64,000 nt of DNA from Escherichia coli (GCF_051903065.1 NZ_CP178438.1); one strand, 5' to 3'; shown: positions 17,782 through 22,952, counted from the first letter of the stretch. Numbers and translations: made by a program. Notes: a model not told the origin generated them from the sequence alone.

Positions 17782-19284
17782 ATGCTGAAAAGGAAAAAAG
17801 TAAAACCAATTACCCTTCGTGATGTCACCATTATTGATGACGGTAAACTGCGGAAAGCCATTACCGCAGCATCACTGGGTAATGCAATGGAATGGTTCGA
17901 TTTTGGTGTTTATGGTTTTGTTGCTTACGCATTAGGTAAAGTTTTTTTCCCGGGGGCTGACCCCAGCGTGCAGATGGTTGCTGCACTTGCCACGTTCTCC
18001 GTTCCCTTTCTGATTCGACCGCTTGGCGGACTCTTCTTTGGTATGTTGGGCGATAAATATGGTCGCCAGAAGATCCTCGCTATCACTATTGTGATTATGT
18101 CGATCAGTACGTTCTGTATTGGCTTAATACCGTCCTACGACACGATTGGTATTTGGGCACCGATTCTGCTGTTGATCTGTAAGATGGCACAAGGTTTCTC
18201 GGTCGGCGGTGAATATACCGGGGCGTCGATATTTGTTGCGGAATACTCCCCTGACCGTAAACGTGGCTTTATGGGCAGCTGGCTGGACTTCGGTTCTATT
18301 GCCGGGTTTGTGCTGGGTGCGGGCGTGGTGGTGTTAATTTCGACCATTGTCGGCGAAGCGAACTTCCTCGACTGGGGCTGGCGTATTCCGTTCTTTATTG
18401 CTCTGCCGTTAGGGATTATCGGGCTTTACCTGCGCCATGCGCTGGAAGAAACTCCGGCGTTCCAGCAGCATGTTGATAAACTGGAACAGGGCGACCGCGA
18501 AGGTTTGCAGGATGGCCCGAAAGTCTCGTTTAAAGAGATTGCCACTAAATACTGGCGCAGCCTGTTGACATGTATTGGTCTGGTAATTGCCACCAACGTG
18601 ACTTACTACATGTTGCTGACCTATATGCCGAGTTATTTGTCGCATAACCTGCATTACTCCGAAGACCACGGGGTGCTGATTATTATCGCCATTATGATCG
18701 GTATGCTGTTTGTCCAGCCGGTGATGGGCTTGCTGAGTGACCGTTTTGGCCGTCGTCCGTTTGTGCTACTTGGTAGTGTTGCACTGTTTGTGTTGGCGAT
18801 CCCGGCGTTTATTCTGATTAACAGTAACGTCATCGGCCTGATTTTTGCCGGGTTACTGATGCTGGCGGTGATCCTTAACTGCTTTACGGGCGTTATGGCT
18901 TCTACCTTGCCAGCGATGTTCCCGACGCATATCCGTTACAGCGCGCTGGCGGCGGCATTTAATATTTCGGTGCTGGTTGCCGGTCTGACGCCAACATTGG
19001 CGGCCTGGCTGGTCGAAAGCTCGCAGAATCTGATGATGCCAGCCTATTACCTGATGGTAGTGGCGGTGGTTGGTTTAATCACCGGCGTAACCATGAAAGA
19101 GACGGCAAATCGTCCGTTGAAAGGTGCAACACCGGCGGCGTCAGATATACAGGAAGCGAAGGAAATTCTCGTCGAGCATTACGATAATATCGAGCAGAAA
19201 ATCGATGATATTGACCACGAGATTGCCGATTTGCAGGCGAAACGTACCCGCCTGGTGCAGCAACATCCGCGAATTGATGAATAA
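17782..19284 (+). CDS. proP: Proline/glycine betaine:H+ symporter ProP (MFS)
   Basis: 500 aa from MLKRKKVKPITLRDVTIIDDGK; MFS topology with C-terminal coiled-coil tail (IDDIDHEIADLQAKR). Confidence 0.93.
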   Translation: MLKRKKVKPITLRDVTIIDDGKLRKAITAASLGNAMEWFDFGVYGFVAYALGKVFFPGADPSVQMVAALATFSVPFLIRPLGGLFFGMLGDKYGRQKILAITIVIMSISTFCIGLIPSYDTIGIWAPILLLICKMAQGFSVGGEYTGASIFVAEYSPDRKRGFMGSWLDFGSIAGFVLGAGVVVLISTIVGEANFLDWGWRIPFFIALPLGIIGLYLRHALEETPAFQQHVDKLEQGDREGLQDGPKVSFKEIATKYWRSLLTCIGLVIATNVTYYMLLTYMPSYLSHNLHYSEDHGVLIIIAIMIGMLFVQPVMGLLSDRFGRRPFVLLGSVALFVLAIPAFILINSNVIGLIFAGLLMLAVILNCFTGVMASTLPAMFPTHIRYSALAAAFNISVLVAGLTPTLAAWLVESSQNLMMPAYYLMVVAVVGLITGVTMKETANRPLKGATPAASDIQEAKEILVEHYDNIEQKIDDIDHEIADLQAKRTRLVQQHPRIDE

Positions 19285-19337
19285 GCTGAAACGGATGGCC
19301 TGATGTGACGCTGTCTTATCAGACCAACAATTGAACT

Positions 19338-19354
19338 CTTAAGGTTCACTTAAT
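19338..19354 (+). promoter_or_regulatory. PmrA/BasR box upstream of pmrR
   Basis: CTTAAG-gttca-CTTAAT, an exact match to the YTTAAK-N5-YTTAAK direct-repeat consensus, about 45 bp upstream of the pmrR ATG. Confidence 0.7.
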
Positions 19355-19398
19355 CTCTGACGCGCATACTCTCCTCCAGGTTAACGGAGGAGAGTGCA

Positions 19399-19488
19399 AT
19401 GAAAAACCGTGTTTATGAAAGTTTAACTACCGTGTTCAGCGTGCTGGTGGTCAGCAGCTTTCTTTATATCTGGTTTGCCACGTACTGA
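19399..19488 (+). CDS. pmrR: Small membrane protein PmrR (29 aa)
   Basis: ATG preceded by GGAGG; MKNRVYESLTTVFSVLVVSSFLYIWFATY; below the ORF-track size cutoff; 3-prime end overlaps basS convergently. Confidence 0.8.
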   Translation: MKNRVYESLTTVFSVLVVSSFLYIWFATY

Positions 19489-20555
19489 TCTTTCTTCAGC
19501 CGTATCCAGGCGCGCGTGCCAGAAGTCTCTTGCCGGTTTTGCAGGAAAAACTGCCCGTGATGCAACTGTGTAATGCGGCTGACAATACTTAACCCCAGAC
19601 CAATCCCGCCATAACGGCTGTCCATTCGTACAAACGCTTTACTCAACTCCCCGCATTTACTCTCATCAATACCCGGTCCTTCATCTTCAACGGCCATGAC
19701 CGCTCCGTCATCTTCTTGCAGCTTAATCATAATGTTGCTGCCTTGCGGGCTGTAACGATGGGCGTTTTCTACCAGATTTCGCAATAACATCCGCAGCAGG
19801 GTTGCATCACCCTGAACGGTGATGTCGGCGGTGCTCTCTGGCAATAGCAGGGTTTGCTGTCGCTGGTCGAGCATGGTACTGAGTTCGTCATACGAGGGGA
19901 GAATGACATCTTCCAGCAGTTTTACATGTTGATAATTACCGGAAGAAAATGACTGTCCGGCACGCGCCAGTTGCAGCAGCTGGGAGACGCTCTCCATCAT
20001 CTGATCAAGCCGTGCCACTAACGGTGCTACATCAATGTGATGCGTTTTCGCCAGCAGTTCCAGATGCAAACGTACCCCCGCCAGTGGCGTTCGCAGTTCG
20101 TGCGCGACGTCAGCGGTAAACAACCTTTCGTTATCCAGCGTGCTGGTCAGGCGACTGACCAGATCGTTTAACGCCGAAACCACCGCTTCGATTTCGAGGG
20201 TGGCGCTGTGAATGGCAATGGGCGTTAAGTTGTCGGCGGTGCGCGCTTCCAGCTCTTTTTGCAGCTCCGCCAGCGGGCGGGTGATGCGGCGTACCGCCTG
20301 ATAGCAGATAAATAGCGTCAGGCTGACCATAAAGACGCCGGGGACAATCAGGCTGGCGACCGCCTCGCGGATCTCACGCATGATGTGGCGATCGTTGTTG
20401 CGATTGTCGCGTAGCGCCTGCTCAAACAGCTGAATCTGCTCGGTACTTTCATGCCATAGCCAGAAGACGCTGATCAGCTCAAACACCAACAAAATGGCCC
20501 CGATGGTCAATATCAGCCGTTGGCGCAGCGATATTGGTCGGCGCAGAAAACGCAT
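19464..20555 (-). CDS. basS: Sensor histidine kinase BasS (PmrB)
   Basis: 363 aa from the ATG at MRFLRRPISL; HAMP, H-box (DVAHELRTPL) and ATPase motifs; track ORF begins 3 codons earlier at a TTG. Confidence 0.9.
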   Translation of the reverse strand: MRFLRRPISLRQRLILTIGAILLVFELISVFWLWHESTEQIQLFEQALRDNRNNDRHIMREIREAVASLIVPGVFMVSLTLFICYQAVRRITRPLAELQKELEARTADNLTPIAIHSATLEIEAVVSALNDLVSRLTSTLDNERLFTADVAHELRTPLAGVRLHLELLAKTHHIDVAPLVARLDQMMESVSQLLQLARAGQSFSSGNYQHVKLLEDVILPSYDELSTMLDQRQQTLLLPESTADITVQGDATLLRMLLRNLVENAHRYSPQGSNIMIKLQEDDGAVMAVEDEGPGIDESKCGELSKAFVRMDSRYGGIGLGLSIVSRITQLHHGQFFLQNRQETSGTRAWIRLKKDQYVANQI

Positions 20556-20564
20556 CAGATTCAA

Positions 20565-22873: not shown

Positions 22874-22919
22874 CACGGTGTTTCCATCGAACAAAGTGCG
22901 CATATGCTCGCAAAGCAAA

Positions 22920-22952
22920 ATTAAGCCAACCTTAAGTTCTTAAGGTTGGCTT
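22920..22952 (-). promoter_or_regulatory. PmrA/BasR box for eptA inside a perfect 14-bp inverted repeat that may also act as the adiC terminator hairpin
   Basis: Minus strand reads CTTAAG-gttgg-CTTAAT about 47 bp upstream of the eptA ATG; plus strand shows aagccaaccttaag / cttaaggttggctt arms followed by a T-run. Confidence 0.65.

Follow-up and report, generated by a model that had tools for sequence, protein, structure and literature searches.

A conserved hairpin at the convergent pmrR-basS junction of Escherichia coli that plausibly encloses the BasR-dependent start of pmrR

Introduction

The short gene pmrR of E. coli lies between proP, which runs in the same direction, and the sensor kinase gene basS (also called pmrB), which faces it, and the nucleotides directly ahead of its start codon can fold into a hairpin that takes in the pmrR Shine-Dalgarno sequence. 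The question that this locus raises is what such a hairpin is for: whether it acts within the pmrR message, at the end of one of the two flanking transcripts, or at more than one of these levels. The answer may bear on how much PmrR is made. PmrR sets the balance at position 1 of lipid A between phosphorylation by LpxT and phosphoethanolamine addition by EptA, a balance in which polymyxin resistance is traded against bile-salt resistance, making the control of PmrR synthesis clinically relevant.

Part of the arrangement is already known, namely the pmrR gene, its BasR/PmrA-box promoter and its overlap with basS. The promoter and the overlap were drawn in Fig. 7 of Tian 2021 (PMC8129183), and the 25-bp pmrR/pmrB overlap was noted by Xu 2021 (PMC8004244). 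What we add is a rereading of the hairpin, which can plausibly be seen as a shared 3'-end stem that has the pmrR promoter inside it.

Results

Identity and distribution of pmrR

The window, by which we mean the whole 64-kb stretch of E. coli DNA that was analysed (64,000 nt), has the gene order proP-pmrR-basS-basR-eptA-adiC. The coding features at issue are the following.

19399-19488, + strand: pmrR coding sequence, a 29-aa membrane peptide and LpxT inhibitor (NCBIfam, RefSeq and published data)
19464-20564, - strand: basS (pmrB) sensor kinase coding sequence, given as the longest ORF (the K-12 annotated start lies 9 nt later)
19464-19488, both strands: pmrR/basS coding overlap of 25 nt (ORFs and RefSeq annotation)

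The pmrR ORF opens with the ATG at 19399 and its 29-aa translation, MKNRVYESLTTVFSVLVVSSFLYIWFATY, reads as a peptide with a hydrophobic core. The NCBIfam PmrR equivalog model NF033224 covers residues 1-29 of 29 with 74.2 bits (cutoff 30). A Pfam search of the peptide gave no PmrR match, the copy searched presumably being one without that model; PF28106 is recorded on the Salmonella PmrR ortholog. We found the 311-nt pmrR region in 5408 of 5426 complete E. coli genomes, where it carries the RefSeq label 'pmrR: LpxT activity modulator PmrR', and the MG1655 locus tag of the gene is b4703. Published work adds that the tagged peptide is found in the membrane fraction and that complementation is lost with a start-codon mutant of pmrR (Vellappan preprint), and that PmrR is required for polymyxin resistance in E. 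coli (Tian 2021, PMC8129183). The locus is pmrR (b4703), encoding a BasR/PmrA-activated 29-aa inner-membrane LpxT inhibitor, convergent with and overlapping basS.

To place the locus in a wider context we compared 76 loci, one genome per species, with BasS as the anchor so that the feature itself was not presupposed. A PmrA box together with a PmrR-like ORF of roughly 29-40 aa, convergent with pmrB, was present at 34 loci and at a separately fetched Salmonella locus; pmrR accordingly lies directly downstream of and convergent with basS/pmrB in E. coli, at these 34 loci (about a dozen genera) and in Salmonella. The genera concerned are Escherichia, Citrobacter, Phytobacter, Pseudocitrobacter, Enterobacter, Raoultella (with Klebsiella MAGs), Kluyvera, Kosakonia, Pluralibacter, Pantoea, Tatumella and Erwinia. 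Among the loci compared, the combination was absent from Siccibacter, Pseudescherichia vulneris, Superficieibacter, Pectobacterium, Rosenbergiella and Gilliamella. The pmrR gene described for Salmonella enterica and E. coli (Tian 2021, PMC8129183) is the same gene, situated between proP and pmrB, and the Salmonella locus has the same box, hexamer and hairpin as that of E. coli; its overlap is 7 nt versus 25 nt.

The gene that precedes the box in the same direction, with flanking genes taken as the longest ORF, differs between groups. Escherichia, Citrobacter and Salmonella have proP at this place; in the group of Klebsiella, Enterobacter, Kosakonia and Kluyvera it is a gene whose product has a UvrB-like C-terminus. 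At several loci of Erwinia, Pantoea and Pluralibacter gergoviae no co-directional gene lies close upstream.

The BasR-dependent promoter

Upstream of the coding sequence the window contains these elements, listed here with the second box, which belongs to the facing operon.

19338-19354, + strand: PmrA/BasR box CTTAAGGTTCACTTAAT, an exact YTTAAK-N5-YTTAAK match
22920-22936, - strand: second exact PmrA box, in the promoter of the eptA-basRS operon, the other BasR target in the window
19365-19370, + strand: putative -10 hexamer CATACT, 10 nt past the box, with invariant A and T and the same layout at eptA and arnB
19377-19380, + strand: predicted BasR-dependent pmrR start, 7-10 nt past the T of the -10 hexamer
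19386-19392, + strand: pmrR Shine-Dalgarno GGAGGAG, read from the sequence

The pmrR box reads CTTAAG-N5-CTTAAT, with 44 nt between its last base and the ATG at 19399. Exact copies of YTTAAK-N5-YTTAAK number 2 over both strands of the 64 kb, against 0.12 expected, and a count of 2 was reached in 1 of 100 shuffles. Since the second copy is at the eptA-basRS promoter, for which the legend of Fig. 7 in Tian 2021 (PMC8129183) describes a PmrA-dependent promoter P1, the transcript that faces pmrR is also BasR-activated. Deletion of the pmrR box alone in the PmrA-constitutive E. coli strain WD101 abolishes polymyxin resistance, and deletion of lpxT fully suppresses this phenotype (Tian 2021, PMC8129183); a transcriptional reporter of the pmrR region was not induced by low Mg (Vellappan preprint).

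A preliminary description of this DNA, made from the sequence alone, had put a perfect box about 45 bp upstream of a 29-codon membrane peptide ORF, had taken control of that ORF by the regulator of the facing operon as likely, and had let the ORF overlap basS by 25 nt. All of this holds up: the box is at 19338-19354, 44 nt from the ATG, the ORF at 19399-19488 matches the NCBIfam PmrR model, RefSeq agrees on the overlap at 19464-19488, and the regulation is supported by the PmrA-box genetics of Tian 2021 (PMC8129183).

The hexamer CATACT begins exactly 10 nt after the box, a spacing that is kept in most of the 34 aligned sequences. Its position 2 (A, 19366) and position 6 (T, 19370) are invariant (34 of 34), and the variants seen elsewhere are GATACT, CACACT and GACACT. 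The -10 element of sigma-70 promoters has its hallmark in an A at position 2 and a T at position 6. Box, 10 nt and xAxxxT follow one another at the three BasR promoters examined, those of pmrR, eptA (GAGCAT) and arnB (TAAAAT), as they do in class II promoters of the PhoB type. A sigma-70 consensus scan over 19150-19700 called no promoter, as is to be expected because an activator-dependent promoter of this kind lacks a -35 element.

Judged from this geometry and conservation, transcription of pmrR should begin at about 19377-19380, on the last base of the 5' arm of the hairpin or on the first bases of its loop. The distance from the start of the box to the ATG is 55-61 nt in the 34 loci (mostly 58-61), and the AGG/GAGG of the Shine-Dalgarno is nearly invariant in the 34-sequence alignment. 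We propose that BasR~P, bound to the box at 19338-19354, would work as a class II activator of the OmpR/PhoB type 10 nt before CATACT, and that the mRNA it drives would carry a leader of some 20 nt in which the Shine-Dalgarno is free.

A conserved hairpin between the box and the start codon

The hairpin straddles the predicted start.

19368-19395, both strands: conserved 10-bp hairpin, the 5' arm being part of the -10 and discriminator and the 3' arm holding the pmrR Shine-Dalgarno

Its arms, ACTCTCCTCC (19368-19377) and GGAGGAGAGT (19386-19395), pair across a loop of 8 nt, with a folding energy of -19.9 kcal/mol on the + strand (z -4.4) and of -20.3 kcal/mol on the - strand (z -3.5). What forms in a given RNA depends on where that RNA begins. 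An RNA running on from proP folds the hairpin (z -3.9), whereas in an RNA folded from 19378 the Shine-Dalgarno is unpaired and the structure is ordinary (z +0.2). The preliminary description had reported the hairpin as including the Shine-Dalgarno, thereby implying a role within the pmrR message. The hairpin is indeed present at 19368-19395 and the Shine-Dalgarno does lie in it; the implied role is probably wrong, as the 5' arm overlaps the -10 and discriminator. With only the 3' arm transcribed from the BasR promoter, the hairpin would not be an operator of the BasR-driven pmrR mRNA.

The pairing is conserved over about 30 species with compensatory changes, which we found in Escherichia, Salmonella, Citrobacter, Klebsiella/Raoultella, Kosakonia, Kluyvera, Tatumella and Pluralibacter. 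In the 34 sequences 75.6% of cells pair in the proposed register, versus 38-53% in control registers with the 3' partner shifted by 1-3 columns. Covariation scored 0.261, whereas shuffles gave 0.156 and 0 of 500 came up to the observed score, and changes on both sides occur in 5 of 13 hairpin pairs of the 34-sequence alignment. Equivalent stems built of other sequence stand between box and ATG in Raoultella (GACACTATCTTCAT/ATGAGGATAGTGTC), in Kosakonia (CACTGCCCCCA/CTGGAGGGCAGTG, with one internal mismatch) and in Pluralibacter (ACTCTGCTGAT/ATCAGGAGAGT). RNAalifold returned no consensus pairs on the 34-sequence MAFFT alignment, to which two Phytobacter rows lying 2 nt off register may contribute. 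Wobble counts over the hairpin pairs (36 G.U versus 38 A.C) gave no strand preference.

The hairpin is not a canonical intrinsic terminator, because neither strand has a U-tract after the stem: the + strand continues with GUGCAAUGAAAAA and the - strand with AUGCGCGUCAGAG, and a scan of both strands for intrinsic terminators did not call it. Stem stability does vary with the upstream gene. The mean is -22 kcal/mol (z -5.7) behind proP, -15.4 kcal/mol (z -4.2) behind the uvrB-like gene, and -9.7 kcal/mol (z -2.2) at loci with no close co-directional gene. The stem is thus strongest beside a co-directional gene, which suggests that it may counter transcription reading in from there, in a trend that is confounded by phylogeny.

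RNA 3' ends on the plus strand

Published 3'-end data place several further features on the + strand; MG1655 coordinates were converted to those of the window by alignment (19368 is MG1655 4332085).

19399-19400, + strand: published RNA 3' end (Term-seq and TRS), the end of the proP mRNA, 4-5 nt past the hairpin
19442-19456, + strand: weak terminator-like stem inside the pmrR coding sequence (scan: 6 pairs, tail GCTTTCTTTA), also in the Rfam consensus
19588, + strand: primary 3' end of the pmrR mRNA (TRS supplement), antisense to basS
19751, + strand: peak of a Rho termination region (Adams 2021 supplement), antisense to basS

The first of these rests on two methods. Term-seq found a + strand 3' end at MG1655 4332116, preceded by ...GGAGGAGAGTGCA (Adams 2021, PMC7815308), and TRS found a + strand 3' terminus with its peak at 4332117 (Nat Commun 2023), the text of the latter study also stating, with a citation of SEnd-seq, that the upstream gene terminates within the pmrR coding sequence. 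For pmrR itself the TRS 2023 supplement gives a 3' end at 4332305 and a 3' UTR of 101 nt; the region around this end (19588) folds without significant structure (z 0.04). Further on, the Rho peak at 4332468 has a score of 8.58 (p 2.7e-37) and, being derived from 800-nt windows, is of coarse resolution; coverage upstream/downstream of it is 248/32 without BCM and 400/443 with BCM (Adams 2021, PMC7815308).

A 3' end 4-5 nt past a stem, with no U-tract and a Rho region downstream, fits trimming back to a protective stem. On the + strand we envisage that Rho would stop proP transcripts downstream and that they would then be trimmed to the hairpin, which would cap the proP mRNA. In read-through RNA from proP the hairpin would mask the pmrR Shine-Dalgarno, and this masking could itself promote the loading of Rho. 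PmrR would then be made solely from the BasR-dependent start; its mRNA crosses the basS overlap to the mapped 3' end near 19588, and Rho would stop the remaining + strand transcription within basS.

The weak stem at 19442-19456 was considered as a terminator of proP or pmrR and rejected: the 3' ends map to 19399/19400 and 19588, and the Term-seq and TRS tables have none at this stem, which is probably non-functional.

Taking promoter, hairpin and 3' ends together, we think it likely that pmrR has its BasR-dependent start inside the hairpin, and that the hairpin serves as a shared 3'-end stem-loop at the convergent junction.

The basS side of the junction

Evidence on the opposite strand comes mainly from Xu 2021 (PMC8004244), who reported that pmrB needs its downstream region for colistin resistance. 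MICs were 0.5 for constructs ending at +34 and +86, 4 at +103, and 16 at +126, +134 and +176; pmrB mRNA was about 315-fold lower for +86 than for +126, its half-life was unchanged, and its highest level was seen in the ORF-only construct (Xu 2021, PMC8004244). We placed the endpoints of this series from the basS stop codon at MG1655 4332181-4332183. The +86 endpoint falls at window 19378, on the first loop base, so that the hairpin is broken; +103 falls at 19361, which leaves hairpin and -10 intact with the box absent; +126, at 19338, coincides exactly with the base at which the PmrA box begins; and +176 is the base following the proP stop codon. Xu et al. (PMC8004244) themselves drew no connection from these endpoints to a box or promoter.

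The endpoints fit two readings that are not exclusive of each other: the basS 3' end may require the stem, or the level of resistance may follow how complete the pmrR promoter on the plasmid is. Carried to its conclusion, the second reading would make pmrR expression alone the explanation of the requirement seen by Xu 2021, with the completeness of the pmrR promoter on the plasmid setting resistance and the hairpin having no function at the RNA level. The MIC steps of 0.5, 4 and 16 do correspond to the coding sequence only (+86), the coding sequence with the -10 (+103), and the coding sequence with -10 and box (+126), and PmrR is needed for E. coli polymyxin resistance (Tian 2021, PMC8129183). 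This account nevertheless leaves unexplained the roughly 315-fold gap in pmrB mRNA between +86 and +126, as well as the covariation of the stem across genera and the 3' end that lies at it, and we regard it as rather unlikely, though deserving of some weight.

Carried equally far, the first reading would give the hairpin to the - strand only, as a terminator or 3' stabiliser of the eptA-basRS mRNA, and would turn the overlap with promoter and Shine-Dalgarno, together with the + strand end, into by-products. With the +86 and +103 endpoints, which bracket the hairpin, both MIC and pmrB mRNA level change, the - strand fold is the slightly more stable one (-20.3 kcal/mol), and the RNAfold figure of Xu 2021 (PMC8004244) marks a predicted Rho-independent terminator in the 3' region. 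Against this, the Term-seq and TRS tables that we searched hold no - strand 3' end for basS and no U-tract follows the - strand stem, while the + strand 3' end at the hairpin was found by two methods. The stem is moreover weakest (- strand mean -6.1 kcal/mol, z -1.1) at loci that do have pmrB but no co-directional gene upstream. Finally, mRNA half-life was unchanged, and this, along with the high mRNA level of the ORF-only construct (Xu 2021, PMC8004244), does not fit a simple stabiliser role. We find an exclusive - strand function unlikely.

A hairpin shared by the two strands, as we prefer, would still lie in the 3' UTR of basS, and the deletion series suggests that it may be needed for a normal level of basS mRNA.

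Overlap and antisense transcription

Across genera the two coding sequences range between being 11 nt apart and sharing 57 nt (-11 to +57 nt). At the loci compared the 25-nt overlap is confined to E. coli, E. albertii and one Citrobacter, while Salmonella and the C. freundii group have 7 nt. The conserved trait is tight convergence, not overlap as such. As had been anticipated from the sequence, the convergent transcripts do overlap: the TRS 3' end of the pmrR mRNA is inside basS, to which the mRNA extends by at least 125 nt, and ExcludonFinder (NAR 2025, PMC12288877) has pmrR-basS among its 165 MG1655 convergent excludons, a list made up of cases that recur in half or more of 58 MG1655 transcriptomes. 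The shared coding sequence alone makes an overlap of the two transcripts by at least 25 nt unavoidable. If the basS mRNA reaches the stem, the entire pmrR mRNA would be complementary to it. The likeness to convergent excludons (PMC12288877) lies in convergent genes with overlapping transcripts; the difference is that excludons stand for mutually exclusive expression, whereas pmrR and basS each have a BasR box and are co-induced. The presence of this box on both units argues against mutually exclusive expression.

These observations bear on a further possibility, that the hairpin acts in the pmrR 5' UTR to gate translation while convergent pmrR transcription lowers basS through antisense or collision effects, giving feedback from BasR to BasS. 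The Shine-Dalgarno is in the 3' arm of a hairpin conserved with covariation, tight convergence is kept in many genera, the pair is on the excludon list with at least 125 nt of basS covered, and the level of pmrB mRNA depends on the downstream region (Xu 2021, PMC8004244). The gate is contradicted by the 5' arm, which as a conserved -10/discriminator would not be transcribed from the BasR promoter, and by the free Shine-Dalgarno of an RNA beginning at 19378. The feedback is contradicted by the drift in overlap length (-11 to +57 nt), by the activation of both units by one regulator, which is not excludon logic, and by the finding that extending the downstream region to take in the pmrR promoter yields more pmrB mRNA, not less (Xu 2021, PMC8004244). 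Deletion of the box also left arnT induction unchanged, in a pmrA-constitutive strain that makes this an insensitive test, and its effect is suppressed by deletion of lpxT (Tian 2021, PMC8129183). We doubt the combined gate and feedback, and functional antisense coupling of pmrR and basS taken by itself seems improbable to us.

It is very improbable that the locus is the non-coding sRNA STnc630, instead of or besides a peptide mRNA: the match to Rfam RF02052 at 19330-19495 is well over the gathering score (181.8 bits against 55), but the model begins 8 nt upstream of the PmrA box and so includes a promoter and no defined transcript, the encoded peptide stays conserved well past nucleotide similarity and passes the NCBIfam model, complementation is lost in start-codon mutants (Vellappan preprint), and we found no mention of STnc630 in the literature searched. 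Rfam files STnc630 as an sRNA gene, whereas the region consists of promoter, peptide mRNA and proP 3' UTR; with a conserved, model-matching peptide ORF and a promoter box inside the model, it does not qualify as a non-coding transcript. The STnc630 consensus structure contains both the pmrR hairpin and the stem at 19442-19456.

Discussion

With the BasR start of pmrR lying inside a shared 3'-end stem-loop, one stem might fulfil three functions, in that it would end or cap the upstream mRNA, end or stabilise the basS mRNA, and carry the -10/discriminator and Shine-Dalgarno of pmrR. We put this complete version forward tentatively, as a real possibility about which we have some reservations. If it is true, only the transcript started by BasR~P escapes 3'-end formation and masking of the Shine-Dalgarno, and PmrR would be made under strict BasR control even though a stress-induced neighbour constantly reads in. 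A start inside a terminator-like stem would in this way provide insulation, keeping PmrR off during proP transcription. The same arrangement is a candidate explanation for why colistin resistance in BL21 needs at least 103-126 bp downstream of pmrB.

Parts of this design have counterparts elsewhere. A stable stem between convergent units is a trait shared with hairpin-protected 3' ends and bidirectional terminators (Adams 2021, PMC7815308; 10.1101/2022.10.23.513370). The likeness to the hairpin-protected ends of Rho-terminated transcripts consists of a 3' end a few nt past the stem and of Rho termination downstream. Unlike bidirectional terminators, the pmrR stem has no U- or A-tract on either side, has an end documented on the + strand only, and is interleaved with a complete small gene and its promoter.

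A second counterpart is the fold-back inhibition of IS10/Tn10 (Kleckner lab), in which transcripts that read in from outside reportedly carry a segment that pairs with the transposase ribosome-binding site, while the element's own promoter is said to start downstream of that segment and to give a translatable transposase mRNA. The logic that we propose for pmrR would be the same; the difference is that the anti-Shine-Dalgarno segment of pmrR would also be the -10/discriminator and part of the 3'-end stem of the upstream gene.

The eptA promoter offers a sister arrangement within the window: the adiC terminator has the PmrA box of eptA in its 3' arm and U-tail. This may point to a more general plan for BasR promoters that lie right behind other genes.

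The adiC terminator and the eptA promoter share one DNA segment

Published RNA 3'-end mapping (TRS, Nat Commun 2023) places the primary 3' end of adiC at MG1655 position 4335633, which converts to 22916 in the window and bounds a region with a strong inverted repeat on the minus strand:

22916-22952, minus strand: perfect 13-bp palindrome with arms AAGCCAACCTTAA and TTAAGGTTGGCTT, its U-tail, and the eptA PmrA box

The folding energy of this palindrome is -25.9 kcal/mol (z -6.1), and the eptA box (22936 to 22920, minus strand), a binding site for BasR (PmrA), sits within its 3' arm and U-tail. Since the adiC transcript ends at 22916 and the box lies in this arm and tail, the terminator of adiC and the BasR site of the next operon are one and the same DNA. 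This is a sister arrangement to that found between proP and pmrR, the gene of a 29-aa membrane peptide, where a conserved 10-bp hairpin (19368-19395) overlaps the inferred -10 hexamer.

A common BasR promoter layout

Three BasR promoters, those of pmrR, eptA and arnB (the last on locus L080, outside the window), have in common a box, a spacing of exactly 10 nt, and a hexamer with A at its second and T at its sixth position:

19365-19370, plus strand: pmrR hexamer CATACT, 10 nt past the box
22904-22909, minus strand: eptA hexamer GAGCAT, 10 nt past the box
L080 2814-2846 (promoter): arnB hexamer TAAAAT, 10 nt past the box

Rfam family RF02052 (STnc630), which is filed as an sRNA and of which no mention was found in the literature searched, covers 19330-19495. 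Because its model takes in the PmrA box, -10 hexamer, hairpin and entire pmrR coding sequence, it describes a promoter plus peptide mRNA, and no defined sRNA. Its consensus structure includes a further element, at which no 3' end is mapped in the published RNA 3'-end datasets searched:

19442-19456, plus strand: weak terminator-like stem followed by GCTTTCTTTA, within the pmrR coding sequence and upstream of its stop codon

Flanking regions of pmrR

Neither box nor pmrR is present downstream of pmrB (basS) in L013 and L016, the loci from Pseudescherichia vulneris and Escherichia sp. ESNIH1; there pmrB is faced by a convergent reading frame with a UvrB-like C-terminus, and the two stop codons lie just 18-31 nt apart, too close for a separate terminator to fit.

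In the window a REP-like stem-loop, GGCCTGATGTGACGCTGTCTTATCAGACC, lies directly 3' of the proP stop codon (19296-19326; -12 kcal/mol, z -2.1), and three bases at its 3' end (19324-19326) are added relative to MG1655. The longest basS ORF, which adjoins the basR stop codon, begins at a TTG 9 nt upstream of the annotated K-12 start (interval 20555-20564), giving 366 aa versus 363 aa.
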